Origin: Candidatus Omnitrophota bacterium
Lineage (GTDB): Bacteria > Omnitrophota > Gorgyraeia > 1-14-0-20-64-10
NCBI GenBank assembly: GCA_023818695.1
Contig: JAMWCF010000001.1
Span: 595,306-659,305, forward strand
Reading direction: 5' to 3'
Length of the DNA: 64,000 nucleotides
Part shown: piece by piece, positions 10,680 through 40,339 of the stretch
Layout: each line of letters begins with the position of its first letter
Numbering within the stretch: the stretch's first letter is position 1
Made by a program: the position numbers and the translations under genes
Notes under the pieces: model-generated
Told to the model about the DNA's origin: nothing
Databases searched by the model: none
The model's input: only the letters and a program-made list of their open reading frames with translations

Positions 10680-11423
10680 TCAGGAGGAGGCCGGCGCCGG
10701 CCTTCTCGACAAGAGCATCGCGAAGGAAATGAAAACCGCTCCTGCGCTCCACCATTGGAAAACTGTCAATCCAAAGGCAAAAGGAGGGTTGTCCCCCCGG
10801 AGGAACTCGATGAGGAAGCGCCACGCACCGTAGAGAAGGCCGTAACTCAACGTGACGACTCCCGGCCGGAATCCGGCCCTACCGATCCCTTTGAGGATGA
10901 AATAAAAGATGAAGAGGATTCCCGTTTCATAGAGCTGGACCGGATGCCTGGCAACCGAATCGCCGGGAAAAACAACGGCCCACGGCAATCCGCTCGGCGT
11001 GCCGTAACAGCAACCGTTCAAAAAACAGCCAATCCGGCCGACGGCATGGGCCGCGACCAGGGCCGGCATCATGACGTCGAATGTCCTCCACGCCGGCATC
11101 CGTTTCGAGCGAACGAACCAAACGGCCGACGCGATGCCAGCGGTCAACCCACCGTAGAAGACGAGCCCCCCCCGGTCCAGCCGAATCACCTCAACGGGAT
11201 GGGACACAAAGAAAGGGAAATTCAAAGCGACAAAAGCTAGCCGGGCGCCGAGCAGACCGGCCGCCAGCGCCAGGATGGCCAGCGTTTGAATCTTTTCAGG
11301 ATCCAGGCCGGCGGCCCGGGCCCTGCGCTGGGCGATGGAGAGTGCGAGAATGAAGCCGATGGCCATCATCAGGCCGTAGCTATGGATGGTGAAATGGCCG
11401 AACTTCAATAGTGTGGGATACAC
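10680..11423 (-). CDS. lgt: Prolipoprotein diacylglyceryl transferase
   Basis: Polytopic protein with YGLMMAIGF, GGLVFYGG and GRIGCFLNGCCYG blocks typical of Lgt. Confidence 0.9.
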   Translation of the reverse strand: MYPTLLKFGHFTIHSYGLMMAIGFILALSIAQRRARAAGLDPEKIQTLAILALAAGLLGARLAFVALNFPFFVSHPVEVIRLDRGGLVFYGGLTAGIASAVWFVRSKRMPAWRTFDVMMPALVAAHAVGRIGCFLNGCCYGTPSGLPWAVVFPGDSVARHPVQLYETGILFIFYFILKGIGRAGFRPGVVTLSYGLLYGAWRFLIEFLRGDNPPFAFGLTVFQWWSAGAVFISFAMLLSRRPAPASS

Positions 11424-11436: not shown

Positions 11437-11877
11437 TTAATTATAACGCAGCATCTGCCAGGCCAGAAACAGTGCCCCGACGGTGATGCAGGAATCGGCA
11501 ACGTTAAAAACCGGCCAGACCCGGAAATCGAGAAAATCGATCACCCCGCCAAACCGGAACCGGTCGATCAGATTGCCGACCGCCCCCCCCAGGACCAGGC
11601 CGAAACTCACGAGGAACAGGGTCCCCCTGGCTTCCACGCGCCGCCACAGGGACCAGAAGAGGGCGGCGATGATGACGAACGTCGCCAGTGTCACCGGAAT
11701 GCTGTATCCCTTCAAGAGCCCGAAGGCGACGCCGGTATTTTTGACAAGGGTTAGATGGAAAAAATCCGGAATCACCGGATAGGTGGAGACGTTGGCCAAA
11801 AAATCTATCATCCAGGCCTTGGAAACCTGATCGACCAGAATAACGAGGAGGGTGACGCCGAAGATCCGGTTAGACAG
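11437..11877 (-). CDS. lspA: Lipoprotein signal peptidase II (start codon uncertain)
   Basis: NTGVAFG, GGAVGNLIDR and FNVADSCITVG are LspA motifs. The conserved TM1 (LLVILVDQVSKAW) lies upstream of the first ATG at 11811. No ATG, GTG or TTG exists between it and the TAG at 11887-11889, so CTG at 11877 is used here as a provisional start. Confidence 0.8.
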   Translation of the reverse strand: MSNRIFGVTLLVILVDQVSKAWMIDFLANVSTYPVIPDFFHLTLVKNTGVAFGLLKGYSIPVTLATFVIIAALFWSLWRRVEARGTLFLVSFGLVLGGAVGNLIDRFRFGGVIDFLDFRVWPVFNVADSCITVGALFLAWQMLRYN

Positions 11878-11886: not shown

Positions 11887-12291
11887 CTATTCGCCAAGCC
11901 CGTAGGAGGATCCGGTCTCGCGGCGTCCCGTCTCTTCTTTGGCCTGGCAGGCGATGCACAGCCGCGCGTAAGGAATGGCCGTCAGACGCCGTTTGTTGAT
12001 CGGTTTGCTGCAGGAAAGGCAGTCGCCGAAACTCTTCTCCTGCACCCGCTTGAGGGCCTCATCGATCTCGTAGAGGATCTTCTGCGCGTTAGTGGCCAGC
12101 CCGAGGGAAAATTCCCGGTCGTAGCTGTCGGTCGCGGAATCGGCGATGTGAAGCGAATAGCCCGAGAGGTCCCCCGCGGCGTCCCTCGGAGACTGCAGCG
12201 CGTCCTCCTCGATGTGCCTCATCGCTTTGAGGATCTCCTCTTTCTTTTTAACGAGGAGCTGCTTGTATTTATCCAGATCTTTTTTCAACAT
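11887..12291 (-). CDS. DksA/TraR-family C4 zinc-finger protein
   Basis: Coiled-coil N-terminal region plus CLSC-N17-CIAC (CLSCSKPINKRRLTAIPYARLCIAC). Confidence 0.85.
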   Translation of the reverse strand: MLKKDLDKYKQLLVKKKEEILKAMRHIEEDALQSPRDAAGDLSGYSLHIADSATDSYDREFSLGLATNAQKILYEIDEALKRVQEKSFGDCLSCSKPINKRRLTAIPYARLCIACQAKEETGRRETGSSYGLGE

Positions 12292-12308
12292 GGTGGGCTT
12301 GCATTATA

Positions 12309-25712: not shown

Positions 25713-26516
25713 TCACGAACCCGTTTCAAAACGGTGTGGCCACACTTCACTCATGATGCCGTCCACCCCGCAAGCGGCCAGCTGTTCGATCTGCCGGGCC
25801 GTCCTGGCCGTCCAGGCATAGGCCTTCAGACCTTTCGCGTGAATCCGCTTGACCGAGCGGGGGTTGATCCACTTCCGGTAAACAACCAGCCCGTCAATTC
25901 CGAGCCGCCGCGCCGTCCATAGCCGCCGCTTTGTGACGGCGGCACTGTAGCCGGTGACCCAAAAAAGCGGGTGACGGCCCTGATCAGACTGCCGCCACCG
26001 CTTCAGGGCCCTCACAACGGAGAAACCGGCATAAAGAGGCCGGTTTCCTCTTTCCCTTTGGAAAAACCGGACGAGCTCCTCCTGCCCCTGATCGGCCTTG
26101 ACATCCAGGAATAGGCCGACGCCCCTGTCCCGGCAAAAATCCCACACCTGCTCCAAGCGCGGGATCCTTTCTCCGAGAAAGCGGGGAGAAAACCACCCGC
26201 CCGCCTCTAAGCGGCGGATCTCGTCCCACGTCATCGTTTTGATCCGCCTCTTTAACCCGACTGTCCTCTTCAAAGTGGGGTCATGCAGGGCGACCCACAC
26301 ACCGTCTTTCGTCCGGCGCAGATCAATTTCTACAAAAACGGCCCCTTTTTCAACCGCCTGCCGGACGGAAACCAGCGTGTTTTCCGGGGCGTGAGCCGGA
26401 TCTCCCCGGTGCGCGATCAGAATGACCTTCTTTTTCACCCGCCCATCATACCACAAGAGGTCATGGAGCCTGATGCGCGGCACTTTAGCACCACTGAACC
26501 TTGACATTTGGCACAA
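25713..26516 (-). CDS. Glycerophosphodiester phosphodiesterase family protein (start uncertain)
   Basis: ILIAHRGDPAHAPENTLVSVRQAVEKGAVFVEIDLRRTKDGVWVALHD is the GDPD signature. The track start (TTG at 26516) sits inside the rpoN promoter, so the GTG at 26438 (VKKKVILIAHRG) is a plausible true start. Confidence 0.85.
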   Translation of the reverse strand: MCQMSRFSGAKVPRIRLHDLLWYDGRVKKKVILIAHRGDPAHAPENTLVSVRQAVEKGAVFVEIDLRRTKDGVWVALHDPTLKRTVGLKRRIKTMTWDEIRRLEAGGWFSPRFLGERIPRLEQVWDFCRDRGVGLFLDVKADQGQEELVRFFQRERGNRPLYAGFSVVRALKRWRQSDQGRHPLFWVTGYSAAVTKRRLWTARRLGIDGLVVYRKWINPRSVKRIHAKGLKAYAWTARTARQIEQLAACGVDGIMSEVWPHRFETGS

Positions 26517-26529
26517 AACTTGCTATACT
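26501..26529 (+). promoter_or_regulatory. rpoN promoter: sigma-70 TTGACA-17-TATACT with a nested consensus sigma-54 element TGGCAC-N5-TTGC
   Basis: Read directly: TTGACA at 26501-26506, TATACT at 26524-26529, TGGCAC at 26509-26514 and TTGC at 26520-26523. The GG-to-GC spacing matches the -24/-12 consensus. The element ends 27 nt before the rpoN ATG. Confidence 0.6.
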
Positions 26530-26556
26530 CTATTTACCATCGTTGGCTCCCCGACC

Positions 26557-27975
26557 ATGGATATATCAACCCAACAGAAACAACAGCAATCACTTACACT
26601 CACTCCAAGTCTCCGCTTGGCCTTGGAAGTTCTCCGAATACCCCTGGCCGAACTGGAGATGTACCTCCAGCAGCAGCTTGAAGAGAATCCCCTGCTTGAA
26701 AAGACTGAAGACCCCTCCGAGCTGGAAGGGGCCCCCGAGATAGAACCCCTCCATGATTCGACAGTCGCCTCCGATGACGACCCGGCGGATGACTTTGAAA
26801 CAAACATTTCGGAACTCTGGCAGGAGAACGACGGTTTTAACCCCTCTCAACAGGAGGAGCCGTTCGCTCCCAGCGTCGTCAGCAAAAGCTTGCCGCTTCA
26901 CGACTACCTCCTGCACCAGCTCTATAGCCAACAGCTCGATGGACAAACAAAGCGGGCCGCCGAAATCCTTCTCAACTGGCTTGACCCGGACGGCTACCTT
27001 TACAGCCCTCTGGAGGAGATCTCGCAATCAGAGGAAATACCGGTGTGCGACCTTGAAAAGGGGCTGGCGGTGATCCAGCGGTTTGAGCCGGCCGGGGTGG
27101 GCGCTCGCTCTCTGACGGAATGTCTGCTGATTCAGTTGGCCCATCGCGGAGATGGAAACGGGCTGGCAGCCCAGATCATCTGGGACCATTTTGACCTGCT
27201 GGTGAAGCAGAAGTGGCATCAGCTGGCTTCCAAGCTTCGGATTCACATCGACGCTCTGCAGGAAGCGGTCCAGACCATCGCCCGGCTTGATCCGAAACCA
27301 GCCCGGAATTTTTCAGGGGAGGTTTCCCTGCCGGTCACCCCCGATCTGATCATGCGGCAGGCCAAGGACGGCTATGAGGTGGAGGTCAACGATGAATCCC
27401 TTCCGAAGCTTATCTTGAGCTCCACCTACCGCCAGATGCTGCGATCTCCCAGCTCCTCTTTCGAAACCAAAACGTTTATCCGGGAAAAAATGCGGCAGGG
27501 CTCTTGGCTCATTAAAGCGATCGAACAGAGGAAACAGACCCTCCTGTCGATCGCCCGGTGCGTCGTGCAGCTGCAGAAGGATTACTTCACCCAGGGAATC
27601 CAGTTTCTGCGGGCGTTGACCCAGGAGGAGATCTCCAAAATGGTGGGTTGCCACCCCTCCACCATCAGCCGGGCCATCGCCGGCAAGACGATCCAGACCC
27701 CTTACGGCGTCGTTCCGCTCGAAACGTTTTTCGGCGGGGGCATTTCCTTGCCGGAACAGGACGGCAAGAAGCTGCCCTCCAGAACAATTCAGGCGGAGAT
27801 CGAAAATCTGATCGCCCGGGAAAATCCGGAGAAGCCGTTGAGCGACCATGCCCTGGCGCTGATACTGCGCGAGAAGGGGTATCCGGTCGCCAGGCGGACC
27901 GTCGCGAAGTACCGGACCCAGCTGAAAATCCTGCCGGCCCATTTCCGCCACAAGCTCGTCAGCCGTTCCGCGTAA
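26557..27975 (+). CDS. rpoN: RNA polymerase sigma-54 factor
   Basis: The start at the ATG at 26557 gives region I (MDISTQQKQQQSLTLTPSLRLALEVLRIPLAELE...ENPLLE). The core-binding region, the HTH and the RpoN box ARRTVAKYR are all present. Confidence 0.95.
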   Translation: MDISTQQKQQQSLTLTPSLRLALEVLRIPLAELEMYLQQQLEENPLLEKTEDPSELEGAPEIEPLHDSTVASDDDPADDFETNISELWQENDGFNPSQQEEPFAPSVVSKSLPLHDYLLHQLYSQQLDGQTKRAAEILLNWLDPDGYLYSPLEEISQSEEIPVCDLEKGLAVIQRFEPAGVGARSLTECLLIQLAHRGDGNGLAAQIIWDHFDLLVKQKWHQLASKLRIHIDALQEAVQTIARLDPKPARNFSGEVSLPVTPDLIMRQAKDGYEVEVNDESLPKLILSSTYRQMLRSPSSSFETKTFIREKMRQGSWLIKAIEQRKQTLLSIARCVVQLQKDYFTQGIQFLRALTQEEISKMVGCHPSTISRAIAGKTIQTPYGVVPLETFFGGGISLPEQDGKKLPSRTIQAEIENLIARENPEKPLSDHALALILREKGYPVARRTVAKYRTQLKILPAHFRHKLVSRSA

Positions 27976-28060: not shown

Positions 28061-29107
28061 TTAAGAACTGGATGCTTCGCTGGGAATGATGTGCGATACG
28101 GACAGGGCGGTCTGCGCCAAACCGATCAGCTTGCGCAGCAGCTCAACGTCCTCCACAGAGAAGGAGGTGGCCTCCCTCGTGCTTCTCAAGTTCAGAACGC
28201 CGACCAGGTGATCGCCGGAGCCGTGGGAGAAGGGGGCCACTAGAGAAGAGGTCAGCTCGGGCCGCCTCATCCGGCTGGAGATCTGCGGATCGGTTTCCTG
28301 GCGGCCGACGAGAAGGATCTCTTTCCTTTCCAAAGCCAATCCCGCCATGCTCCCGAAGGAGGAGAAAGCCCCAACCCGGACTACCTCCTCCGGCAGCCCG
28401 GAGGCCGCCGCGATCCGGAACATCCTCTTTTTATCATCGTAGAGGAGGATCGACCCACCCTCCGCGTGCGTCGCCGCGCAGGCGACATCGAGGAAAGCAT
28501 TCCAGAGGCGTCCTCCGTAATGCTTTAGGATCACCTGGTCCACCTGCCCGAAAGGAAGGATCCCCTTGAGCTGGTTGGCCTGGTAGGCCATCTCCAGCAG
28601 GGAGTTGCCCATCTCCTCCAGCATGGAGAGGACCGCCTTGAAGGTGGTGTAGGTGTACGCCTTGAGGGTCAACAGGAGCTCCCAGACCGGCGCGGGATCC
28701 ACACCCATCTGGACCGCTCTCTGCCGGAACGACTCCGCGCTTTCCCTCGGACCCAGAACAACGGGACCGATCACCAGGTATCCCACGATCCAATTTGCCG
28801 AGGCCCGCAGGGGGATGGCAGCAAATGAAAAACCGAGGGGCCTGGTGGTGGCGGTGGTCATCTGCGGGAGGATTTCAGCGGAGGGAAACAGTTCCTCCAT
28901 CTCATCGCCGATTTGCAGAAGTTCGACCATCCGGGAAGCGTCTATCCCGGCTGGCCAGGAGGGATCGACGAGATGCATTTTGGAAACCGACAGAGTCCGA
29001 ATCCCCACCCCCAGAACCCGTGAGAAATGGGACTGCAGCCGATGCCAGCGGTCGGGCGGGATCAGCTCCAAAAGTTCGGGCCGACGCTCCTGCTCGTATG
29101 AGGTCAT
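28061..29107 (-). CDS. Sensor protein with PocR-like N-terminal domain and C-terminal GAF domain, no output domain
   Basis: 348 aa. The N-terminal half resembles PocR-type ligand-binding domains (FAAIPLRASANWIVGYLVIGPVVL). The C-terminal half is GAF-like (GGSILLYDDKKRMFRIAAASGLP...LVAPFSHGSGDHLVGVLNL). It is the third gene of the kinase/activator operon. Confidence 0.7.
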   Translation of the reverse strand: MTSYEQERRPELLELIPPDRWHRLQSHFSRVLGVGIRTLSVSKMHLVDPSWPAGIDASRMVELLQIGDEMEELFPSAEILPQMTTATTRPLGFSFAAIPLRASANWIVGYLVIGPVVLGPRESAESFRQRAVQMGVDPAPVWELLLTLKAYTYTTFKAVLSMLEEMGNSLLEMAYQANQLKGILPFGQVDQVILKHYGGRLWNAFLDVACAATHAEGGSILLYDDKKRMFRIAAASGLPEEVVRVGAFSSFGSMAGLALERKEILLVGRQETDPQISSRMRRPELTSSLVAPFSHGSGDHLVGVLNLRSTREATSFSVEDVELLRKLIGLAQTALSVSHIIPSEASSS

Positions 29108-29136: not shown

Positions 29137-30528
29137 TTAAAAATTCGACCGGAGACGGTCTGGGTCAATCGAAAACCGCTTCAGTTTGTGGTACAAAGTC
29201 GCCCGGTGAATGCCCAGCCTTTTGGCGGCAAGAGACCGGTTGTAGCCGCATTCCTTCAAGACCTTCATGATGATCTCCCGCTCCGGGTCCCGAAGTGCCT
29301 CCTTCAGGGTGGACGGGTCATCGCCATTTTCGGCCTGCGGCGCCGGCTCCTGTGACAGATGGGGAGGCTCCCCCCGCCGGATCGTGTCCGGCAGGTCCTC
29401 CACATCGACAAAGGTTTTTTGATTCATGACGATCGCCCGCTCGATGGCGTTTTCCAGCTCGCGGACATTGCCCGGCCAGGGATACCGCCTCAAGAGATCC
29501 AAAGCGGCTGGCGTCACGCTGTCCATCGTTCTTCCCATCTGGGTGGAAATCTTTTTGAGGAAATGCTCCACGAGGATGGGAACGTCGCTGGCCCTCTCCC
29601 GCAAGGGGGGAATGTGGAGTGAAATAACGTTGAGACGGTGATAAAGGTCTTCCCTGAATTTCCCTTCCTTTACAAAGGCATCCAGATTCCGGTTGGTCGC
29701 CGCAATGATCCGGACATCGACCCGGATGGTCCTGTTGTCTCCCACCCGCTCAAATGTCCGGTCCTGAATGACCCGCAGGACTTTGACCTGCATGGCCGGC
29801 GAAAAGGTATCAACCTCATCCAGCAGAATGGTCCCGCCGTCCGCGACCTCGAAACGGCCCTCCTTGTCCCGGATGGCGCCGGTGAAAGATCCCCGGACGT
29901 GACCGAAAAGCTCGCTTTCCAAAAGGGTCTCCGGCAGAGCCCCGCAGCTGACTTCCACAAACGGGTTCTTGCATCTCTTCGGGTCGGCCCGGTGGATCGC
30001 GTGGGCGATCACTCTTTTGCCGGTCCCGCTTTCGCCCCTTAACAGAACGGTGGCCGGACTTTGGGCGATGAGCGTGATCTTTCTGCGGAGATCCTCCATG
30101 GAAGCGTGGTGTCCGACGATCGCGGAGAACGGGTCGGCGGCCGCCGGCTCGTCGTAGGAGGTGGTCGTCGCCAGCGCCCGCTGAACCGTGGCCTCGAGCT
30201 GTTCCGTCTGAATCGGCTTTGTCAGGAAATCGAAGGCGCCGTTGCGGAACGCCCCGACCGCCGTGTCCAGATTGCCGAAGCCGGTGATCAAAACAACGTT
30301 GATATCAGGATACCTGTTTTTGATGTGCTCCAGCAGGCTCAGGCCGTCCACCTGCGGCATCTTCAGGTCGGTCAGAACCAGCTGAAACTTGCCTCCCTTA
30401 AGCTGCTCCATCGCTTCGGTCCCGTCCGAGGCGACCTCGACGTTGAAGCGCATCTCCTTAAGCTGCTCATAGAGAGAACCCCGGATCAGCGGGTCATCAT
30501 CGACGACAAGGATGCGGTTTCTTTCCAT
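29137..30528 (-). CDS. Sigma-54-dependent response regulator (NtrC family; PrsR-like by context)
   Basis: REC domain (ILVVDDDP...LVLTDLKMP) and AAA+ domain with Walker A GESGTGK. The sigma-54 contact loop is the GSFTGA variant of GAFTGA. A C-terminal Fis-type HTH is present (LAAKRLGIHRATLYHKLKRF). The start is taken at the ATG at 30528. Confidence 0.93.
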   Translation of the reverse strand: MERNRILVVDDDPLIRGSLYEQLKEMRFNVEVASDGTEAMEQLKGGKFQLVLTDLKMPQVDGLSLLEHIKNRYPDINVVLITGFGNLDTAVGAFRNGAFDFLTKPIQTEQLEATVQRALATTTSYDEPAAADPFSAIVGHHASMEDLRRKITLIAQSPATVLLRGESGTGKRVIAHAIHRADPKRCKNPFVEVSCGALPETLLESELFGHVRGSFTGAIRDKEGRFEVADGGTILLDEVDTFSPAMQVKVLRVIQDRTFERVGDNRTIRVDVRIIAATNRNLDAFVKEGKFREDLYHRLNVISLHIPPLRERASDVPILVEHFLKKISTQMGRTMDSVTPAALDLLRRYPWPGNVRELENAIERAIVMNQKTFVDVEDLPDTIRRGEPPHLSQEPAPQAENGDDPSTLKEALRDPEREIIMKVLKECGYNRSLAAKRLGIHRATLYHKLKRFSIDPDRLRSNF

Positions 30529-30532
30529 TGGA

Positions 30533-31699
30533 TCAATCCCCCTTCTCTTCCTGCCCCGCCGTGGGGACATGAATCCGGAATGTGGTCCCAATGCCCGTTT
30601 GACTTGTAAAATCGATGCTGCCGCCGGAGCGCTCCACGGCCTCCTTGGCGATGATCAGCCCCAGACCGTTTCCCTGGTGAGGCGGCTTTGTGGAAAAGAA
30701 CGGTTCGAAAAGGCGGGACCGCACCTCCTCCGGGATGCCGCAACCGGTGTCCTGAATGAGCACATCTACGTGGGCGTTTTCGCAGCGGGTCGCCACCGTG
30801 AGCGTGCCGCCGGTGGGCATGGCGTCGAAGGAATTTTTGATCAGGTTCATCACGGCGTGCTGCAAACCGGCATCCATCACCGGCGGCAGTTTTTCCTGGA
30901 AGTCCTTGATCACCTCCACCTGCTGAAACTTGCTGCGGTGACGGAACAGCAGCAACGCGTCTTCGATCAGACGGTTGAGGTCGGCCAGACGACCGGTCGT
31001 TGAGGAGGTTTGGCGGGCGATTTCAAGGAAGGCGGTCGCCGCCCGGACCATCCGGTCAAGCCCCTCCTTCACATGAAGAATGTACTCTCTTTCGGGAGCA
31101 TCCTCCGGCATCTTCTCCAGAGCCAGGTGCGTATACCGGAGAACCCCGTCCAGGGGGTTGTTCAGCTCATGGGCGATCCCTCGGGCGATCTTGCCGATCG
31201 AGGCCCGGTACTCGGTTTGGCGCAGCTGTTTCTTGAGACGGACCATCTCGGAAATATCACACAGCGAGATCACCAGGGTCTGCCGGCCGATCTCATCCTC
31301 CGGCGTTGCCCGGACGCAGAACCGGACCCATTTTTCCTTCTCGATGTTGAGATCGAACTCCACCAGGTCTTCGGCGGGAGGGCTGGTGATGAGGCAGGAA
31401 AAGCTCTTGGCGAACTCGGTGTTCTTAAAGAAGGGCATCGCCTCAAAGAGGGTCTGCTGGGCGACCTGGTCCTTCTCCAGGCCAAGGAGCTTCAGGGCGG
31501 CCGGATTCACCGCGCAGATGATCGCCTTCTGGTCGACCACAAGACAGCCGCACGGGAACGTATCGACGATCTGCTCCCAGGTCTTTACGTCGTTGACAGT
31601 TATGCCGTCGATTTCCATGGAAGAAAGGCCGTGAAGGGCGTCGTCCTTTTTCGACACACGGGAAACCTCTTTTCTAATACTTTTGACGAACGGTGTCAA
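30533..31699 (-). CDS. Soluble PAS-domain sensor histidine kinase
   Basis: No TM segments. It has a PAS-like N-terminal region, the HisKA H-box IAHELNNPL and HATPase_c blocks (NLIKNSFDAM, DTGCGIP, GNGLGL). The start is TTG at 31699, preceded by AAGGAG. Confidence 0.9.
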   Translation of the reverse strand: MTPFVKSIRKEVSRVSKKDDALHGLSSMEIDGITVNDVKTWEQIVDTFPCGCLVVDQKAIICAVNPAALKLLGLEKDQVAQQTLFEAMPFFKNTEFAKSFSCLITSPPAEDLVEFDLNIEKEKWVRFCVRATPEDEIGRQTLVISLCDISEMVRLKKQLRQTEYRASIGKIARGIAHELNNPLDGVLRYTHLALEKMPEDAPEREYILHVKEGLDRMVRAATAFLEIARQTSSTTGRLADLNRLIEDALLLFRHRSKFQQVEVIKDFQEKLPPVMDAGLQHAVMNLIKNSFDAMPTGGTLTVATRCENAHVDVLIQDTGCGIPEEVRSRLFEPFFSTKPPHQGNGLGLIIAKEAVERSGGSIDFTSQTGIGTTFRIHVPTAGQEEKGD

Positions 31700-31805: not shown

Positions 31806-32429
31806 TCAACTGACGATCTGAAGCTGTGCAAGCGCTGCTAAAAAGCGGTTGAGACGATCCTGGCTCTTGATCGGATCTTCCCTGGACGTGGAGATCCTCA
31901 CCAGCGTCCCGTACATCGATCTGCCTTTCAGGAGGTCGGAAAAAAGCCACCATTGCTGCTGATAATAATTCGGAGTCACACGCCCGTTGGCCGTGAACCA
32001 GTACCAGGTTTCATACTCTTTCCCCTCCTGGGCGATGACCAACCGCATCAGCCGCTGCCGGCGCCCTCCCAGCTCTACGGTCATCGGACCCCGCTGCCTG
32101 ATTTCAAAGTCGGCCCCCGCGAAACAGATCTCCGGAGGATGGAAAGCAGCCCTGTTTTTGCCGAACCCGCCGACCCGGGCGAACAGAACGGCCGGCTCCT
32201 CCGGTACAGCGTACTCGACCAGAGTCACATCTTTGGTCTCCAGTATTTCGTAGGTCCTGGCATCCACGCCGACAGGGGTCCCCTTCCATTCGCCGATCGA
32301 TTCCGGCAGGGGGGAAGCGGCAACCACCTGCCCTTGGCTGTTCGCGTTATTGGCGGCCCACACGAGGCCAGCCGCCGACACCATGACCAGGAAAGCTATC
32401 GGTGAAGGACGAAAGAGGGCAGAGACCAT
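31806..32429 (-). CDS. epsI: EpsI-family exosortase-associated protein
   Basis: The internal ATG at 32429 gives 207 aa with an N-terminal TM helix. EWKG...HPPEICFAGADFE and WYWF blocks are typical of EpsI. It lies immediately downstream of the exosortase. Confidence 0.75.
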   Translation of the reverse strand: MVSALFRPSPIAFLVMVSAAGLVWAANNANSQGQVVAASPLPESIGEWKGTPVGVDARTYEILETKDVTLVEYAVPEEPAVLFARVGGFGKNRAAFHPPEICFAGADFEIRQRGPMTVELGGRRQRLMRLVIAQEGKEYETWYWFTANGRVTPNYYQQQWWLFSDLLKGRSMYGTLVRISTSREDPIKSQDRLNRFLAALAQLQIVS

Positions 32430-33268
32430 TTTTCCATCGCCTTGCTCAACCAGGCCAAAGCCGCCAAAGCCACGCCGAACACTACGAACCCGGAACCGTA
32501 ATGAATGAAACTCTCGGCAATGTATGGGCCGTAAATCGCCGAGAGAAGAACCAGCGCGATAATCCGGATCATGTTGGCCCCCAACGCAATCGGGATGGAA
32601 GCCACCACGATCGCCGCCTTTTTCCAGCGCTGGGAACCGGCCGGCAGAAGGGCCGTCCACAGCGTGGAGAGGGCGATCAGGCTGATCAAGGACCGCAGGC
32701 CACTGCAGGTGTCATCCACGATAACCGAGACTCCCGGGACATGGAGCATGGAGCCAGCTTGGGCCACCGGAATGCCCATCATCCGGATCACGCCGGCCGC
32801 CATCGAGGCAGCCAGGATCTTCATCCGGAAGCTCAAAGCGATCAGCGTGACGCCAGGCAAAGGAACCATGAAAAGGAGAAACAGCAATGGGAACCGCAAT
32901 TCCCACAGCATCCGGCGACCGCAGAGGACCCATACCAGCCCATACAGGGCCGCCAGCATCGCGAAGCCGGAAACCACGCCGATCGAAAGCAGCGTGGCGG
33001 CCAGGTGCACCACCACCGCGGGCACCAGCAGGAACAGACCCGCGAAACTGGGAGCACGCGGAATGTTTTTCAACTGTTCACGCCGGCGCCATACCAGCCA
33101 GATGCTGGCGAAGGGGATCAGCCACCCGTGGGAATAGAAGGAATCGGCCGACTCGAAACGCTCGGCCATCCACAGGAAGGTGGGCCAAAAAAGGAAGAGG
33201 AACAGGCCGGCCCACAACGGCCAGACGATGAAACGGCCCGGTGCTGTGGTCCCGCCAAGGAAGCTCAT
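32396..33268 (-). CDS. Exosortase (EpsH/Xrt family transpeptidase)
   Basis: 290-aa polytopic protein with the exosortase catalytic block DDTCSGLRSLISL and conserved Arg/His context. An ATGA overlap links it to the upstream TPR gene. Confidence 0.88.
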   Translation of the reverse strand: MSFLGGTTAPGRFIVWPLWAGLFLFLFWPTFLWMAERFESADSFYSHGWLIPFASIWLVWRRREQLKNIPRAPSFAGLFLLVPAVVVHLAATLLSIGVVSGFAMLAALYGLVWVLCGRRMLWELRFPLLFLLFMVPLPGVTLIALSFRMKILAASMAAGVIRMMGIPVAQAGSMLHVPGVSVIVDDTCSGLRSLISLIALSTLWTALLPAGSQRWKKAAIVVASIPIALGANMIRIIALVLLSAIYGPYIAESFIHYGSGFVVFGVALAALAWLSKAMEKWSLPSFVLHR

Positions 33269-34176
33269 CGAACCCCCGGAGCTGCTCCCTGCGGCGTGGA
33301 AGTCGTATTGGCGCCGCCCTGCGCCGGCGGCGTTTCAGGTTTTTTGAGCTGGTCCATCTGATATTGGGCCACTTTCACGAATGGATGTTTCGGAAATTCG
33401 TTGATCAGCCGCGAGAAGGCGGCAGCCGCCTTTTCCGGGTTGTCCAGGTTTTTCTGGTAAATCTTCCCCAGATTCAGAAGGGCGAAGGGTTTATCGATCC
33501 CCTTGACCTTTGAATTGGTCAGCTCTTCCAAAACGCTCACCGCTTCCTGCCACCGGTGAAGCTGCTGATAGGCCGCCGCCAAATACTGCTTGACCTGGAA
33601 TTCGATCTCCTTGGACGGCGCGTTGAGGATCAGTTTTTTGTAGTGGCTGACCGCCCCCTCGTAGGCCCGCAGGGCTTCGGAAGATTCCTTGCGCTTCTCA
33701 TACACCGCCGCGATGTAGAGGGGAGACTGAAGACCCAAAAGCGTCCAGGGATGATACTCGGCAAGATCCTTGTAGGCCTTGACGGCATCATCCCACTGGT
33801 CCTGCGCCTCATACGATTTGGCGATCGCCATCCTGGCACTCATGCACAGCTGGGAAAACCGGTGGTAATCCTGTAGGACGAGCCGGTACTTTTCCCGCGC
33901 CCTCTCATGCTTCTTCTGAAATTCATAGAGAGAGCCGATCGACAGCTGCGCCCGCCCCGACCACTCGGTCCCCGGCAATTGGGTGATCAGCTTGTTGTAA
34001 GCGTCGATCCCCTTCGCGTACTGCTCCGGCGTCGCTTTAGCTGGATCTTTGAAGATCGGGGCGCTGACCTTCTGGGCCTTCCAGAAAAGCCGCTCGCCGT
34101 TATACTGCTCACTGCACCCCGACAGCGCCGCTATGGAAAAGATAACAAGTGTCCCAACAAAATTCTTAAGCAACAA
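33265..34176 (-). CDS. TPR-repeat lipoprotein (short PrsT-like)
   Basis: Canonical lipobox AALSGC after a signal peptide, followed by multiple TPR-like repeats. The TTG start at 34176 is preceded by AAGGAGG. Confidence 0.8.
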   Translation of the reverse strand: MLLKNFVGTLVIFSIAALSGCSEQYNGERLFWKAQKVSAPIFKDPAKATPEQYAKGIDAYNKLITQLPGTEWSGRAQLSIGSLYEFQKKHERAREKYRLVLQDYHRFSQLCMSARMAIAKSYEAQDQWDDAVKAYKDLAEYHPWTLLGLQSPLYIAAVYEKRKESSEALRAYEGAVSHYKKLILNAPSKEIEFQVKQYLAAAYQQLHRWQEAVSVLEELTNSKVKGIDKPFALLNLGKIYQKNLDNPEKAAAAFSRLINEFPKHPFVKVAQYQMDQLKKPETPPAQGGANTTSTPQGAAPGVR

Positions 34177-35077
34177 CGGTTCCCTCCTTTGCGCTGCGTC
34201 CCATCCATTGAGATGGCACCCGCTCCGTTGCCTGCGGCGCGGACAACCCTTCCGGCCGGTGAAGACACCAGAGGTGGGCGATGCTCACCGTCAGCAAAGC
34301 ATCTACCGTCATCCACATCAAAAGACGGATTCCCGTCAGAAGAAAAGCGATTTCAGGCGTTGAACCGATGACCCACTGGGTGACCCTCCCTTCCGGCAGA
34401 AGGAAGGCGAAAAGGAACAAAGGGGCGGTGAAAACGATCACTGCGGAGAGGGTACTCAAAGGGAAACGGATCGACTCCTTGATGCCTCGGAGGATCGCCT
34501 TCCACCAGCTCAATCCTTCGAAAACCGCCGCCGGGATCGCGTAAACGAACAACCACTGAATCAGAACGGCAAAACAGATCGGATGCCAGACAGCCAGTTT
34601 CCCGCTCGGAATGACCTTCAGCAGAGCTTCCAGGGCGCCCCGCCCCACGCTCCACAAGATGAGCCAGATCAGGGCAACGGTGATATACCGGACCTTTTTG
34701 CCCGCCAGCGCTTCCCTCAAGGAAAGCGGCTTGGCCTGATGAGTTTGCCGAACCATCTCACAAGCGACACCCGACAAAAAGGCGCCTGCCAGCACGGAAG
34801 CAACCACGTGGGTATGTTTCGTGACGTAATAGATAAACCACATGTGCCAGGGGTAATGGAGGACCCTGTCGCTGTAAAAATACCGGACCGGCGGGGCCAG
34901 AAGGGTTGAAAAAGGAGGGTGCGGGGCCAGCCACACCAGCCCGACCAGCGCTATTTCAACAAAAAGCGCCATGATAAAAGGGAGCCACAGCTTTTGGGCG
35001 GGGCCGAAAATCTGGAAAGTTCTTCCCCACATCTGCAGCCATTCCTGAAATCTTTTCACAATGGATATATTGGCCAC
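34166..35077 (-). CDS. Polytopic membrane protein of unknown function in the exosortase operon
   Basis: 303 aa with at least 6 hydrophobic segments. I recognise no family. The start is GTG at 35077, 30 nt after the mini PEP-CTERM gene stop. Confidence 0.6.
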   Translation of the reverse strand: MANISIVKRFQEWLQMWGRTFQIFGPAQKLWLPFIMALFVEIALVGLVWLAPHPPFSTLLAPPVRYFYSDRVLHYPWHMWFIYYVTKHTHVVASVLAGAFLSGVACEMVRQTHQAKPLSLREALAGKKVRYITVALIWLILWSVGRGALEALLKVIPSGKLAVWHPICFAVLIQWLFVYAIPAAVFEGLSWWKAILRGIKESIRFPLSTLSAVIVFTAPLFLFAFLLPEGRVTQWVIGSTPEIAFLLTGIRLLMWMTVDALLTVSIAHLWCLHRPEGLSAPQATERVPSQWMGRSAKEGTVVA

Positions 35078-35107: not shown

Positions 35108-35416
35108 CTACGATTTCGATTCTGTTTTCCGGGCGCGCCGGCGCGCGAACGCCAACCCTGCCGCCCCCGCTCCGAAAAGGGCCATGCTAGCCGGTTCCGG
35201 ATTGTGCACAACAGGATTGCCCCCCACGGTGGTGGAGCCGGATGACCCGGACCCGCCGAATCCGCTTCCACTGGAAGAAAAAGAGGAGGAGCCTCCTCCG
35301 AAAAATCCAAAGAAGTCGGTGAACCCGCTGCCACCGCCACTTCCACCGCAACCGGAGGTCAAAAAGATGGACGATCCAACTAATACCATTGATAAAAACG
35401 TTTTCTTCTTCTTCAT
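35108..35416 (-). CDS. Mini PEP-CTERM protein (102 aa), Gly/Ser/Phe-rich, with lipobox-like signal peptide
   Basis: MKKKKTFLSMVLVGSSIFLTSGC is followed by GGSGGGSGFTDFFGFFGGGSSSFSSSGSGFGGSGSSGS. The sequence ends with PEPASMALFGAGAAGLAFARRRARK (PEP motif, TM helix, basic tail). A GGAAGG/GGGAGGG RBS lies upstream. Confidence 0.8.
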   Translation of the reverse strand: MKKKKTFLSMVLVGSSIFLTSGCGGSGGGSGFTDFFGFFGGGSSSFSSSGSGFGGSGSSGSTTVGGNPVVHNPEPASMALFGAGAAGLAFARRRARKTESKS

Positions 35417-35482: not shown

Positions 35483-35500
35483 AAGCAGAATGCGTACCAA
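35483..35500 (-). promoter_or_regulatory. Sigma-54 (-24/-12) promoter of the exosortase operon
   Basis: The minus strand reads TTGGTACGCATTCTGCTT. GG and GC have exact consensus spacing, and the element ends 66 nt upstream of the ATG at 35416. Confidence 0.6.
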
Positions 35501-35670: not shown

Positions 35671-35711
35671 CAAAAAATAGGACGGCCCTCCTTCTACAAG
35701 GAGAGCCGTCC
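35671..35711 (-). terminator. Rho-independent terminator after the 227-aa PEP-CTERM gene
   Basis: The minus strand reads GGACGGCTCTCCTT-GTAG-AAGGAGGGCCGTCC, a 14-bp stem with one G-U pair. It is followed by TATTTTTTG and lies 33 nt after the stop. Confidence 0.7.
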
Positions 35712-35744
35712 CACTGGGGTTACACTAAATAAGCTTCGAGATGA

Positions 35745-36428
35745 TTACTTCCGGCAAAACCGGCGAAAGCCGGCAGCCGCCATGCCGAAGCCGAGCAACA
35801 GCATGGAACCCGGTTCCGGGATCACTCCGATGAAGCCCTGGTCCGGAATGAAATCATCGGGTTCAAAACCTCTGTTATCCAGTTTGGCAAAACCCTGCGC
35901 TCCGGGGAATGGGGCCAGGTACAACGGCAGGAAGGTCGCAGGCGCGTAAACCTCGATCACCGATCCCAACGCGCCGGCGCCACCACCGACAATGGCGCCG
36001 CTTCCATCCCGGATAACCACCGTGCCCAAACCACCCTCATTGAAATTAATGATCCGGTCATCGGTGCTCGTCAAGGCACTGTCCCCGTCAAAATCGATGG
36101 CGAAGACAAAAAGCGACTCCTCACCCGGCAAAGAGCCAGGCCCGCCGGCAAAGGTCGGTGGAGCGTAGGTGGTCATCAGGAAATAGAGCCCGTCGTCGCT
36201 CGGGTCTCCACCGAACTCATCCTCCACCCTTAACGAGGAGATGTCCCACGGATCGCTGATATTCAGCAACGGGTTGACATTGAATTCGTTGGGATCGCCC
36301 GCCGCGATGATGAAGGAATCCCATTCCGTTCCCGTAATCACGCCATCCACGACCGGCACAGCGGAGGCGGTGCCCGCGAAGGCAACCAATCCCATCGCTA
36401 ACGCCGAAAACAGTACAAACTTTTTCAT
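35745..36428 (-). CDS. PEP-CTERM domain secreted protein (227 aa)
   Basis: Signal peptide MKKFVLFSALAMGLVAFAGTASA and C-terminus IPEPGSMLLLGFGMAAAGFRRFCRK. Confidence 0.85.
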   Translation of the reverse strand: MKKFVLFSALAMGLVAFAGTASAVPVVDGVITGTEWDSFIIAAGDPNEFNVNPLLNISDPWDISSLRVEDEFGGDPSDDGLYFLMTTYAPPTFAGGPGSLPGEESLFVFAIDFDGDSALTSTDDRIINFNEGGLGTVVIRDGSGAIVGGGAGALGSVIEVYAPATFLPLYLAPFPGAQGFAKLDNRGFEPDDFIPDQGFIGVIPEPGSMLLLGFGMAAAGFRRFCRK

Positions 36429-36472: not shown

Positions 36473-37216
36473 TCAACGAAGCCCAACACCCTTGCCGGTC
36501 ACCATCACCAGGAAAGTGGCCGCCAAAATCCGGACATCCAGCATCAAGCACATCCGCTTGATATAAAGAACGTCAAACCGGAGCTTCCTTTTCACATCCG
36601 CGAGGGTCCTGTCATACCGATAATAGACCTGGGCCAAACCGGTCATTCCCGGCTTGACATACAGCCGGTAGCCGTAACCCGGAATCTCTTTGTTGAGCTG
36701 GTCTACAAAACAGGGTCGCTCCGGCCGGGGCCCCACGAGGCTCATCTCCCCTTTCCAGACATTGATCAGCTGTGGCAGCTCGTCCAGGTGGGTCACCCTC
36801 AAAAATCTCCCCACCGGCGTCACCCGGGGATCTTCCGCCGAATGGCGCGCCCACACCGGCCCGGTCGCCGCTTCCGCGTCATGCACCATGGAGCGGAATT
36901 TGAACATGTTGAAGAGATCGCCTGACCGCCCCACCCGCTCCTGGGTGTAGAAGACCGGCCCTCTCGAAGTCAGCTTGATCGCCGCAGCGATCAGCAGCAT
37001 CACGGGCGCGAAAGCGACAATCAGCAGAGTGGAACCGACGAAATCGACCACCCGTTTGAGGGCTAATCGCCACCAGTACCTGGAGTTCAAAATCACATCC
37101 GGGTAGTTGAGGGCAAGGAAGGAACCAATCCGATCTACCGTCTCCTTGCGGATTACGTTCCACCGGGTCATCAACCCCTGCTGTCTATTCACCCATCGAG
37201 CGACTAAGACTGTCAT
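36473..37216 (-). CDS. Polyprenyl-phosphate sugar phosphotransferase (bacterial sugar transferase, priming enzyme)
   Basis: One TM helix plus the PVFYTQERVGRSGDLFNMFKFRSM, DELPQL, GEMSLVGPRP and GMTGLAQV blocks. Confidence 0.9.
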   Translation of the reverse strand: MTVLVARWVNRQQGLMTRWNVIRKETVDRIGSFLALNYPDVILNSRYWWRLALKRVVDFVGSTLLIVAFAPVMLLIAAAIKLTSRGPVFYTQERVGRSGDLFNMFKFRSMVHDAEAATGPVWARHSAEDPRVTPVGRFLRVTHLDELPQLINVWKGEMSLVGPRPERPCFVDQLNKEIPGYGYRLYVKPGMTGLAQVYYRYDRTLADVKRKLRFDVLYIKRMCLMLDVRILAATFLVMVTGKGVGLR

Positions 37217-37268: not shown

Positions 37269-37286
37269 AAGCAGGAACTATGCCAG
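37269..37286 (-). promoter_or_regulatory. Sigma-54 (-24/-12) promoter of the sugar-transferase / PEP-CTERM-227 unit
   Basis: The minus strand reads CTGGCATAGTTCCTGCTT with consensus GG/GC spacing. The element ends 52 nt upstream of the ATG at 37216. Confidence 0.6.
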
Positions 37287-37467: not shown

Positions 37468-38253
37468 TTAAGCTCTTGTCTTCTTGCGAGAGCGGAAACC
37501 CAGGAGGCCTAAACCAGCGCCCAAGAGAGCCAACGAAGCCGGCTCTGGAATAACACCATTCCCTCCACCGCCTGTGCCGCGGAAGCCCCACTCTTCAAAA
37601 GATCCCTGGTTCGGGTCGTTCTCGCCAAATCTGGAATAAAGATAAACGTACTGGCTCGTCGGCCCGGTGAACAAACTGTTCGGAACGTAAAGGAACATGT
37701 CCTTCTGCCCCTGACCAGCTCCGATAGAAGCATCCAACCGGACGTAGCTGTTCTCGCCGGCGTCCATCCGGTAAATCAGGGTTCCGGAAATATCGATCAA
37801 CCCGCCGGTGAAGGTTTCCACCGACTGGTTTGGCGTGATCGAAAGGAAAATTTGGACTTCATCCAGCGACAGGAAACGCTGGGCCCCACCTGGCTCACCT
37901 ATATCGAGTGAGAATTCCCTGTAATCGGTCCCATCAACATTGATGACGGGAATCTGGGAGATCGTGATCTCATGGTTATGCTGATCGCTGGCCTTGTTGT
38001 CCAAGACGTTATCGACCGTCGTGTTGTAGGCCTGCTCAATGGCGCTGTCGTTACCGGTACGGTCGATCTGGACAAAAGCGGGAAAAGTGCCTGTCCCGGT
38101 GCCGGTCTGGATATCCCGGCTGTAAAGGGCCCCGTTGATGATCCCTTCCGTGGTACCTCCGGTCAGGTCCAGAACCACCGCCTCGGCCGGCGACGCCGCC
38201 AGGCCGAAACCGATCAACACCGCAATAATCCCTGTTTTTATGAGTTCCTTCAT
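37468..38253 (-). CDS. PEP-CTERM domain secreted protein (261 aa)
   Basis: Signal peptide ending SPAEA and C-terminus IPEPASLALLGAGLGLLGFRSRKKTRA. Confidence 0.85.
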   Translation of the reverse strand: MKELIKTGIIAVLIGFGLAASPAEAVVLDLTGGTTEGIINGALYSRDIQTGTGTGTFPAFVQIDRTGNDSAIEQAYNTTVDNVLDNKASDQHNHEITISQIPVINVDGTDYREFSLDIGEPGGAQRFLSLDEVQIFLSITPNQSVETFTGGLIDISGTLIYRMDAGENSYVRLDASIGAGQGQKDMFLYVPNSLFTGPTSQYVYLYSRFGENDPNQGSFEEWGFRGTGGGGNGVIPEPASLALLGAGLGLLGFRSRKKTRA

Positions 38254-38300: not shown

Positions 38301-38318
38301 AAGCAGGTTCCATGCCAA
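38301..38318 (-). promoter_or_regulatory. Sigma-54 (-24/-12) promoter of the 261-aa PEP-CTERM gene
   Basis: The minus strand reads TTGGCATGGAACCTGCTT with consensus GG/GC spacing. The element ends 47 nt upstream of the ATG at 38253. Confidence 0.6.
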
Positions 38319-39540: not shown

Positions 39541-40339
39541 TGGGAACGATCCGCCGCTTGAGCTGTTCGTACCAGTAGACGCCCAGCATTTTCTTCAGGA
39601 GCCAGATCAGCTGCTGCTGACCGACTGCCCACCAGAAAGCCGGCTGCCATCCCTCCACCATCGAGACCACCCTTTCGATGGAGAAGGGACGGCGGACGAC
39701 AATCCGGCGCAGGGCCAGCGGATGGGTCTGCGGGCCGTTGGTGCCGATGGTCGACACCCAGGCGGCCTCGTAGCCGGCCTTCTCAACCGCCTCGGCGATC
39801 GGCCGGTTCCAGAAACCGCCCGGCGCCGCGATCGCGGTGATCGGCACTCCCAGTTTTTCCTCCAGCACCTTCTTCGATTCGACGATTTCTCTTTCCATCT
39901 CATCCCTGGAAAGCTGCGAAAGGGGCCTGTGGGAAACGCCGTGGGAGCCGATCTCCATCCCCAGAAAAACCATCTTCTTCAGGTCCTCCCAGGTGACGTA
40001 CCCCGGCCGGCCGATCAGGTCGAGGGTGACAAAAAAGGTCCCGCCGAAGCGATAACGAACCAGCAGAGGGGCGACCCGTTCCAGATGATTTTTATAGCCG
40101 TCGTCGAACGTCAGGACCACCGTCCGCTTCGGGAGGTCCTGCTTCCCCTGCTGCCAGGCGATGAACTCCCTCGAGCTGGCGGTCCGGTACCCCAGCCGTT
40201 TCAGGCGGGAAAGGATCGCTTCGAACTCCGTGACGGTGATGCTGTAAAAACCGTCCCCATGGGAGGCGGACCGCTGCGTCTCGGAGATCACGTCATGCAG
40301 CGTCAGCGCCGCTATCCTTGTGCCGTTGTGTTCCGTCAT
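39533..40339 (-). CDS. Polysaccharide deacetylase (CE4 family)
   Basis: The ATG at 40339 (ATGA overlap) gives 268 aa. VVLTFDDGYKNH and IGSHGVSH are CE4 motifs. The long track ORF (to 40918) is a spurious N-terminal extension overlapping the upstream gene. Confidence 0.85.
   Translation of the reverse strand: MTEHNGTRIAALTLHDVISETQRSASHGDGFYSITVTEFEAILSRLKRLGYRTASSREFIAWQQGKQDLPKRTVVLTFDDGYKNHLERVAPLLVRYRFGGTFFVTLDLIGRPGYVTWEDLKKMVFLGMEIGSHGVSHRPLSQLSRDEMEREIVESKKVLEEKLGVPITAIAAPGGFWNRPIAEAVEKAGYEAAWVSTIGTNGPQTHPLALRRIVVRRPFSIERVVSMVEGWQPAFWWAVGQQQLIWLLKKMLGVYWYEQLKRRIVPNA

Follow-up and report, generated by a model that had tools for sequence, protein, structure and literature searches.

What does a protein of about one hundred residues do beside the genes of an exosortase, if it carries the signal peptide of a lipoprotein at one end and the sorting signal of an exosortase substrate at the other? 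This question is raised by a stretch of 64,000 nucleotides (hereafter the window) from a Candidatus Omnitrophota bacterium, in which a gene at 35108..35416 on the minus strand (ATG start, stop codon 35108-35110) encodes a protein of 102 amino acids (aa), here called the mini-protein. Typical exosortase substrates are large, diverse and probably glycosylated, and we know of no exosortase whose cut site, attachment target and cargo destination have been established in the approximately 20 years since these enzymes were predicted. We found that the mini-protein belongs to a widespread family with conserved termini, and we tentatively read it as a flexible connector between the membrane and the acceptor of the exosortase.

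Two sorting signals in one small protein

A previous reading of the window, made from its letters and open reading frames (ORFs) and referred to here as the sequence-only reading, had described the mini-protein as consisting of three parts, namely a signal peptide with a relaxed lipobox, a middle of low complexity and a PEP-CTERM tail, and all three were recovered as described. The signal peptide (residues 1-23; 35348..35416, on the minus strand like the other parts of the gene) ends in the lipobox L-T-S-G-C23 and was modelled by AlphaFold2 as a helix over residues 3-22. When examined with a hand-coded regular expression of the PROSITE PS51257-type pattern, the segment MKKKKTFLSMVLVGSSIFLTSGC matched, with K within the first seven residues, an uncharged h-region and L-T-S-G-C with the Cys at position 23, inside the permitted range of 15-35; the N-terminus as a whole reads MKKKKTFLSMVLVGSSIFLTSG-C23. 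The term "relaxed" is apt because the residue at -3 is T and not L. The signal peptide is followed by a G/S/F-rich, predictedly disordered linker that begins with an oligo-Gly run (residues 24-70; 35207..35347), by H-N-P-E-P, which is a family-specific form of the PEP motif (residues 71-75; 35192..35206), and by a transmembrane (TM) helix, ASMALFGAGAAGLAFA, with the basic tail RRRARK(TESKS) (residues 76-102; 35111..35191). The C-terminus shows the tripartite build PEP-ASMALFGAGAAGLAFA-RRRARK-TESKS, and the two models of the PEP-CTERM signal score above their cut-offs on it (27.6 bits versus a gathering score of 20.7 for PF07589 of Pfam, and 23.3 bits versus 16 for TIGR02595). From C23 to P75 there are 53 residues, 72% of which are G, S or F (18, 13 and 7 residues, respectively). 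AlphaFold2, supplied with the family alignment, predicted helices at 3-22 and 75-100 only and no secondary structure between them (pLDDT ~51-56), in line with the disordered middle that had been proposed.

The genomic context is that expected for both signals. Together with the signal helix, a PEP-CTERM protein should be accompanied by an exosortase, and an exosortase gene is located 1.8 kb downstream in the same operon. The two genes for lipoprotein processing also lie inside the window, i.e., lgt for prolipoprotein diacylglyceryl transferase (10680..11423, minus strand; PF01790, 194 bits) and lspA for signal peptidase II (11437..11811, minus strand; PF01252, 116 bits). At the level of sequence, the mini-protein is a member of the PEP-CTERM class in every defining respect, and it also has the sequence features of a bacterial lipoprotein.

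How is the gene expressed? Purine-rich runs resembling Shine-Dalgarno sequences (GGGAGGG and GGAAGG) are found 5-20 nt upstream of the ATG, and a -24/-12 element of the sigma-54 type, TGGTACGCATTCTGCT (35484..35499, minus strand), lies 68 nt upstream of it, where a promoter had been placed at 35483-35500 by the sequence-only reading. The pattern TGGYAYN5YTGCW occurs four times in the 64-kb window against 0.13 matches expected from shuffled sequences, and three of the four sites stand directly upstream of genes of the locus (the mini-gene, a sugar transferase gene and a PepA-like PEP-CTERM gene). When the 330 nt upstream of the lipobox codon were scanned in homologous genes, a strict sigma-54 site was detected for 14 of 21 non-redundant homologues, compared with 1.3% of background windows of 330 nt. 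These sites imply that the mini-gene would be co-regulated with the rest of the locus. Because an intrinsic-terminator-like hairpin (35676..35715, minus strand; 18-bp stem and T run), which ends the upstream PEP-CTERM gene, and the sigma-54 promoter separate that gene from the mini-gene, the latter is the first gene of its own transcription unit.

The mini-gene has apparently been missed by the annotation of its own genome, since a neighbouring protein is 100% identical to an NCBI nr entry from a Candidatus Omnitrophica metagenome-assembled genome (MAG; locus tag NC910_03310), whereas no identical copy of the mini-protein was found among 5.8 billion proteins (best match, 52% identical). This absence from a collection that holds its neighbour, together with overlapping shadow ORFs in other frames, might be taken to mean that the ORF arose by chance in G+C-rich DNA of low complexity and is not a gene at all. 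Against this stand the Shine-Dalgarno sequence, the sigma-54 promoter of its own, the conserved synteny and, above all, hundreds of homologues in which both termini are conserved in the protein frame (see below); we assign next to no probability to a chance ORF, which such conservation effectively refutes.

A family conserved at both ends

Is the combination of two signals peculiar to this copy? A word-indexed search identified 23 homologues of 84-146 aa with the same three-part build, and their alignment shows invariant G22, C23, N72, P73, E74, P75, L80 and G84. A profile search over 1.84 billion cluster representatives (clusters at 50% identity) yielded 384 clusters at E<=1e-10, almost all with lengths of 85-146 aa and aligned over their full length; at E<=1e-3 there were 5367 matches, generic PEP-CTERM tails among them. 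Among the best 150 profile matches, 134 representatives (85-146 aa) aligned end to end, and the strict lipobox pattern was passed by 125 of these, while the remaining nine have a hydrophobic stretch followed by x-G-C. Some much longer matches were examined as possible fusions and discarded, as P0089, P0122, P0124 and P0151 (1300-2500 aa), and likewise P0110 and P0169 (~368 aa), arise by read-through from one PEP-CTERM gene into the next.

Across family members the two termini behave very differently from the segment between them. All 157 sequences have Cys at +1 of the lipobox and 94% have G at -1, although members are otherwise only 33-64% identical; position -2 is A, S or T, and position -3 is L in 40% and T in 17%. 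The residue at +2 is never Asp, and positions +3 to +6 are 71-82% Gly, so that the lipobox Cys opens a C-x-GGGG segment. At the other end, PEP is found in 100% of the 157 members, preceded by [VI]-A-T-V-H-N (H at -2 in 78% and N at -1 in 85%) and followed by A-S-[ML]-A-L(98%)-F-G(91%)-x-G(100%)-L-A-G...RRRK. Because the Cys, the G at -1, the PEP motif and the L and G positions of the helix (98-100%) are retained to this degree, both sorting signals are, as judged from these alignments, under selection. The conserved parts of the family are the two ends only. The linker between them ranges from 37 to 100 aa (median 54) and consists of 29% G, 20% S (G+S ~49%), 9% D+E, 1% K+R and, on average, 4% F. 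A motif of the LF..LFG type was observed in 43 of 156 members, and many linkers are without any Phe. Phe-Gly repeats, as they would be needed for a cohesive domain of the nucleoporin style, are not kept across the family, and the FG-repeat-like character that had been attributed to the mature peptide was abandoned, F-richness being a property of this copy and of a minority of its relatives.

The names given to homologues in their clusters are only "hypothetical protein" or "PEP-CTERM motif". None of the named PEP-CTERM subfamily models (NF038129, THxN, EDSAP-1, XDP1, cistern, CCXG, QFxxD and PepA) gave a full-length match above its cut-off; they align only with the C-terminal 20-55 residues of the mini-protein, at 17-24 bits versus cut-offs of 60-125. 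A literature search that combined lipobox or lipoprotein with PEP-CTERM returned no dual-signal protein from the library searched, and we agree with the sequence-only reading that no role for such proteins is described, as far as NCBIfam, Pfam and the literature are concerned. On the evidence of its alignments, this is a real and widespread, yet unnamed and uncurated, family of ~100-residue proteins of Omnitrophota-type bacteria. The class itself is known; what is new is an uncurated and widespread PEP-CTERM subfamily whose architecture sets it apart and which comes with a partner family that is likewise new. The cassette to which it belongs, likewise uncurated and represented in Omnitrophota and relatives by at least 384 clusters at 50% identity, may be used to build family models for annotation.

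How far, then, does the mini-protein differ from the PEP-CTERM proteins that surround it? For comparison, 29 non-redundant larger PEP-CTERM ORFs were taken from the window and related loci. A genuine lipobox is present in none of the 29, the sole match of the regular expression falling upstream of the real start, and I or V stands directly before PEP in 27 of them. On account of these counts, the lipobox and the form H-N-PEP can be regarded as specific to the mini-protein. They also bear on the simplest view of it, which is that the mini-protein is ordinary small matrix cargo, cut by signal peptidase I (SPase I) after T-S-G, with an incidental Cys and a glycosylated chain that fills the exopolysaccharide (EPS). 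T at -3 and G at -1 would be acceptable to SPase I, and many PEP-CTERM proteins have Ser/Thr-rich regions of low complexity that are thought to be glycosylated (Haft preprint 10.1101/2023.06.07.544157). An incidental Cys is nevertheless difficult to reconcile with its invariance, with the nearly constant G at -1 and with the A, S or T at -2 in sequences that otherwise diverge so widely; no such motif occurs in the 29 other proteins of the same loci, and operon position and HN-PEP are conserved as well. We therefore consider plain cargo very improbable.

A similar contrast emerges from the comparison with characterized proteins. PEP-CTERM proteins such as PepA of Zoogloea resiniphila and Aquincola tertiaricarbonis share the PEP motif, the TM helix, the basic tail and the presence of an N-terminal signal peptide, and the likeness extends to an EPS locus with an exosortase, to RpoN (-24/-12)-dependent transcription (here from promoter sequence) and to a tetratricopeptide repeat (TPR) lipoprotein gene downstream. 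The RpoN-dependent pepA gene is located upstream of the TPR lipoprotein gene prsT, and both are required for the formation of flocs (PMC9850573). In contrast to proteins of the PepA type, which have 200-300 residues, a signal of the SPase I type and I or V before PEP, the mini-protein has ~100 residues, no folded domain, a lipoprotein-type signal and H-N before PEP.

Gene neighbours and the membrane partner

With which genes does the mini-gene travel? In the window, it is followed on the minus strand by genes for a helical protein of 303 aa with approximately six TM segments (34166..35077; hereafter 6-TM protein), a TPR lipoprotein of 303 aa with the canonical lipobox A-L-S-G-C, which is a short counterpart of PrsT (33265..34176), and an exosortase of the EpsH family (32396..33268; PF09721, 203 bits). 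Contigs that carry homologues of the mini-protein have the same neighbour genes. As an independent test of linkage, 49 metagenome loci were collected with the 6-TM protein as anchor (alignment A5, motifs LHYPxHLWF and WLAPHPPFS), 34 of which are distinct and have at least 500 nt upstream of the 6-TM gene. A full-length mini-gene lies directly upstream of the 6-TM gene on the same strand in 31 of these 34 loci, at a gap of 19-350 nt. The window and at least 17 loci share the order mini-gene, 6-TM, TPR, EpsH, EpsI, (kinase) and sigma-54 regulator, and wherever the flank is long enough, the exosortase is no more than 7 kb away from the mini-gene. A second arrangement (L001, L004 and L071) begins with EpsH-EpsI-Bac_transf and up to eight PEP-CTERM genes, and the mini-gene, 6-TM and TPR genes follow; here the latter three adjoin the kinase and regulator genes, the exosortase gene is found 3-7 kb upstream, and the array of PEP-CTERM genes closes with the mini-gene, which does not stand at the head of the sortase operon. 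Since the position of the exosortase shifts between loci, the constant partners of the mini-protein are the 6-TM protein and the TPR lipoprotein and not the exosortase. The earlier view of the mini-gene as leader of the exosortase operon is thus correct for the window and at least 17 related loci but fails for L001, L004 and L071. Homologous mini-ORFs do exist near exosortase genes elsewhere, with 384 clusters in the profile search and a distance of no more than 7 kb in the loci with sufficient flank, but their constant neighbours are the 6-TM and TPR genes and F-richness is not kept.

These arrangements bring in a sensory explanation, in which signals from the envelope would reach the membrane-less PAS/GAF kinase and the sigma-54 regulator through a trio of mini-protein, 6-TM protein and TPR lipoprotein, with the cleaved or uncleaved state of the mini-protein reporting sorting capacity and acting by feedback on the sigma-54 promoters. 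A parallel is offered by RcsF and NlpE, small disordered lipoproteins that report the state of the envelope. In both arrangements, the three genes directly precede the kinase, regulator and PocR/GAF genes, whereas the exosortase gene changes place; the kinase is devoid of a membrane domain, and envelope sensing must then come from another protein; and the sigma-54 promoter of the mini-gene would complete an autoregulatory loop. The PrsT, PrsK and PrsR proteins of the XrtA system are, moreover, a TPR lipoprotein, a kinase and a sigma-54 regulator (PMC1569441). On the opposite side, no resemblance of the 6-TM protein to the membrane domain of PrsK or to any family could be detected, a KSB1 locus carries the 6-TM protein together with a multi-TM kinase, the cassette occurs without the mini-gene in several phyla, and sensors usually keep a binding surface, whereas the middle of the mini-protein is free to vary. 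Taken together, a sensory function appears unlikely, though less so than the other alternatives to our preferred reading.

A genome scan with the 6-TM alignment revealed the 6-TM/TPR/exosortase cassette without a mini-gene in Eisenbacteria, KSB1, an Elusimicrobia MAG and others, and some Omnitrophota loci likewise have the cassette alone (mini-less loci: L009-L017, L040 and L054). We accordingly rejected the idea that the mini-protein is a universal core component of this exosortase type. In L040 and L054, which are of the Omnitrophota type, a larger ordinary PEP-CTERM gene occupies the place of the mini-gene, and in L010 and L011 it is replaced by a tandem PEP-CTERM array. Such arrays, of five to seven tandem genes for proteins of ~200-270 aa with signals of the SPase I type and "P[IV]PEP" motifs, are located directly upstream of the 6-TM gene in L010 (4735-9844), L011 (4932-9837) and L071 (2116-6884).

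Is the mini-protein a dedicated substrate, as the sequence-only reading suggested? The loci contain three to nine PEP-CTERM genes (three in the window, eight in L071), and the gene next to the mini-gene encodes the 6-TM protein rather than an exosortase, which does not agree with a pair of one enzyme and one target. The dedicated pairs of the JDVT-CTERM type likewise consist of a small target beside a co-regulated membrane partner in a two-gene neighbourhood (Haft preprint 10.1101/2023.06.07.544157). In contrast to these, the exosortase of the present loci serves a locus with several PEP-CTERM proteins and is not dedicated, and the 6-TM neighbour lacks a protease or sortase signature and also occurs without the mini-protein. 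The suggestion holds in that the mini-protein, with its HN-PEP and a lipobox found in none of the 29 others, is a special member of its locus and not bulk material, but not in the sense of an exclusive pair. A role as protein primer for polysaccharide synthesis was also considered and set aside; it is unnecessary in a locus with a polyprenyl-phosphate glycosylphosphotransferase, and nothing supports it.

The 6-TM protein itself has invariant LHYP, P-E and D motifs (alignments A4/A5; loci L007-L070), and its AlphaFold model is all-helical and confident (pLDDT 89, pTM 0.84). It matched no family in Pfam or NCBIfam and no sequence in PDB, and a Foldseek search with the model gave no significant match, the best being CysZ (TM 0.46-0.64, E 0.2-0.4). 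Homology to CysZ was not accepted on the basis of so weak a match, nor was an origin as a split-off membrane domain of PrsK, to which no similarity could be detected. Judged by hydropathy and the positive-inside rule, the protein probably crosses the membrane six times and has both ends in the cytoplasm; the LHYP and P-E motifs would then be placed on the periplasmic side, as the PEP motif of a substrate would be. The 6-TM gene was always found beside genes for a TPR lipoprotein and an exosortase, in Omnitrophota, Planctomycetia-labelled MAGs, Elusimicrobia, KSB1 and Eisenbacteria. In our view, the 6-TM proteins make up a new and well-conserved family of membrane proteins and are a candidate for a missing component of this exosortase type; the same may be considered for the short TPR lipoprotein as part of the sorting machine.

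In several loci, 6-TM and TPR parts are encoded by one ORF (L040 4908-6782, L043 4911-6722, L050-L052, L056 and L060), as is also the case for proteins P0077 and P0087 (502 aa), and the former lipoprotein signal peptide would be a seventh TM helix in such an ORF. In L026 (3699-5048, plus strand), no stop codon separates the mini-gene from the 6-TM gene within a stop-to-stop frame of 449 codons, which is either a natural mini::6-TM fusion, topologically possible, or an error of sequencing or assembly. Both kinds of fusion would be topologically sensible and hint at physical association, and the single ORFs of the 6-TM/TPR kind provide, at the level of gene structure, evidence in the Rosetta-stone style that both proteins work together.

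Such closeness to the machinery, combined with the H-N before PEP, may also be explained if the mini-protein were a pseudo-substrate, whose HN-PEP docks in or beside the exosortase without being turned over and which, anchored by its lipid and its helix, serves an exosortase/6-TM/TPR complex as gate, inhibitor, primer or assembly factor. All substrates encoded in the same loci have systematically different residues in front of PEP, the mini-protein pairs with the 6-TM protein almost one-to-one, and a common frame such as that of L026 would be feasible in that it joins two segments with a predicted cytoplasmic location, the basic tail of the former and the N-terminus of the latter. We nevertheless regard a pseudo-substrate as rather improbable, considering that its PEP motif, the pattern of L and G in its helix and its basic tail match those of true substrates in their degree of conservation and that the sole fusion (L026) may be a sequencing error.

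A proposed lipid-anchored connector and its locus

How might two sorting signals be used by one small protein? Conservation confined to the ends and a linker that is variable in length and predicted to be disordered argue for the design of a connector, and our preferred, though tentative, reading is that the mini-protein is a flexible connector from the membrane to the exosortase acceptor, i.e., a membrane-to-matrix tether following a logic like that of Braun's lipoprotein (Lpp). The mini-protein would be made along with the sorting machinery once the sigma-54 regulator activates the locus. After export by Sec, the precursor would be held in the inner membrane by its two helices, with a loop of ~50 residues in the periplasm. 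Lgt and LspA would exchange the N-terminal helix for a diacylglyceryl-Cys23 anchor, and the exosortase would remove the C-terminal helix by a cut at or after PEP and move the new C-terminus to an acceptor, which may be a matrix polysaccharide or a lipid. The adjacent 6-TM/TPR pair probably assists the exosortase in this step and may read [VI]ATVHN-PEP. The finished product would probably be a floppy lipopeptide of ~50 residues (~53 if counted as C-x-GGGG...VHNPEP), the functional parts of which would be the two ends and the middle of which would act as an entropic spacer. Its final form as a lipid-peptide-polymer conjugate, that is, a diacylglyceryl-Cys lipopeptide of ~53 residues whose ...VHNPEP end the exosortase has linked covalently to exopolysaccharide or a further lipid, is a more specific and rather doubtful proposal.

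Lpp is a small lipoprotein that is lipid-anchored at its N-terminus, joined through its C-terminal residue to an envelope polymer by a transpeptidase, and serves as a molecular tether. The comparison is a functional analogy and implies no homology: Lpp is a helical trimer, whereas the mini-protein would be disordered and G/S-rich, and Lpp is joined to peptidoglycan by L,D-transpeptidases, whereas the mini-protein would depend on an exosortase and its acceptor. Exosortases are regarded as acting by transpeptidation, with a new moiety ending up on the substrate, and substrates of the ArtA/PGF-CTERM and rhombosortase/GlyGly-CTERM systems receive a C-terminal lipid (PMC11980579). If the exosortase acted likewise, the C-terminus of the mini-protein would be membrane-anchored; in contrast to those substrates, the mini-protein would already bear an N-terminal lipid, and a peptide lipidated at both ends would result, of which we found no description for ArtA, rhombosortase or exosortase systems. 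In a bolder variant of the connector, the lipid-anchored C-x-GGGG N-terminus could itself be the acceptor for other PEP-CTERM cargo, by analogy with pentaglycine, the acceptor for sortase A; this would require a free alpha-amine, i.e., the absence of Lnt.

Several considerations weigh against the connector. Translation, lipidation, cleavage and the attached moiety are all predicted from sequence, and the hosts are uncultured. T-S-G also fits the -3/-1 rule of SPase I, and the HN-PEP variant might instead prevent cleavage. A tether to EPS is a guess, because no PEP-CTERM protein has a known exosortase acceptor. The position of the mini-gene, 6-TM and TPR genes beside the kinase and regulator genes in the second arrangement (L004 and L071) would fit a sensory role equally well. 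Finally, the mini-protein is an accessory of one clade of the cassette and not a core part of it, as the cassette occurs without the mini-gene in several phyla. If the tether were nevertheless correct, diderm bacteria would have a new means of attaching matrix polymers to their cells, and the mini-protein would be the first covalent link between membrane and matrix to be identified as the work of an exosortase, comparable to an Lpp-like staple for EPS instead of peptidoglycan. Such a small unfolded product would also be the simplest handle on the exosortase acceptor, accessible to intact-mass spectrometry, and the family may offer a natural minimal exosortase substrate with ~50 mature, unfolded residues, a lipid handle for purification and, in ATVHN-PEP, a recognition motif that is conserved and deviates slightly from the usual form.

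Which system does the surrounding locus represent? On the minus strand, an EPS gene set is followed by a PepA-like PEP-CTERM gene (37468..38253; 261 aa, sigma-54 site at 38302-38317), a gene for a polyprenyl glycosylphosphotransferase (Bac_transf; 36473..37216, sigma-54 site at 37270-37285), an ordinary PEP-CTERM gene (35745..36428; 227 aa, signal of the SPase I type, VIPEP), the terminator and sigma-54 promoter, and the mini-gene. Behind the 6-TM, TPR lipoprotein and exosortase genes come, on the same strand, EpsI (DUF3485; 31806..32429), a PAS histidine kinase without membrane domain (30533..31699), a sigma-54-dependent response regulator that resembles PrsR but scores below the equivalog cut-off (29137..30591), and a PocR/GAF sensory protein (28061..29107). 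The listed EpsI ORF extends to 32660, and its true start is probably an internal Met near 32429. The exosortase scores 170 with TIGR02602 (cut-off 105), while the equivalogs of the XrtA system all remain below their cut-offs (XrtA 180.7/208, PrsT 29.7/312, PrsK 77.6/300 and PrsR 374.5/502.6), and the exosortase type is therefore left unclassified. The locus has in common with the XrtA/PEP-CTERM system an exosortase, EpsI, a TPR lipoprotein, a histidine kinase and a sigma-54 response regulator, as well as sigma-54 promoters before PEP-CTERM genes (Haft 2006, PMC1569441). It differs from that system in a kinase without membrane domain and in the additional 6-TM protein and lipoprotein-type mini-substrate.

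The PocR/GAF gene directly follows the sigma-54 response regulator gene in all cassette arrangements, including the same position in L001 (9368-10411), L004 (13036-14055) and L071 (11827-12852). The rpoN gene for sigma-54 (26422..27975, plus strand) adjoins the locus, as it also does in L005 and L071. A perfect site of the sigma-54 type, TGGCACAAAACTTGCT (26509-26524, plus strand), is situated 87 nt inside the listed rpoN ORF and is either a sign of a later rpoN start with autoregulation or a fortuitous match.

The EPS gene set extends over ~38-62 kb and encodes GT2/GT4 transferases, two Wzy-like proteins, deacetylases and a GH123-like protein. An ORF of 1012 aa in this set (40336-43374, minus strand) combines a calcineurin-like metallophosphoesterase with GH123-like N-terminal and catalytic domains; it overlaps the next gene, which makes its start uncertain, and GH123-like genes are found again in L004 and L005. 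Two Wzy_C proteins (O-antigen ligase/polymerase-like) are encoded at 45778-47244 and 50343-51839 (both minus strand), and an ORF of 568 aa without a Pfam family (44471-46177, minus strand) is placed between both Wzy_C genes.

The lspA and lgt genes are part of a cluster with ileS and a gene for a dksA-like zinc-finger protein (10680-15125, minus strand). The listed lspA ORF of 124 aa begins at position 24 of the 142 positions of its profile, and the true start may be an alternative codon upstream. A diguanylate cyclase with HAMP, GAF and GGDEF domains is located at the edge of the window (261-1772, minus strand), and it is followed by a cell-shape cluster of rodA, PBP2, mreC and mreB (2133-7383).

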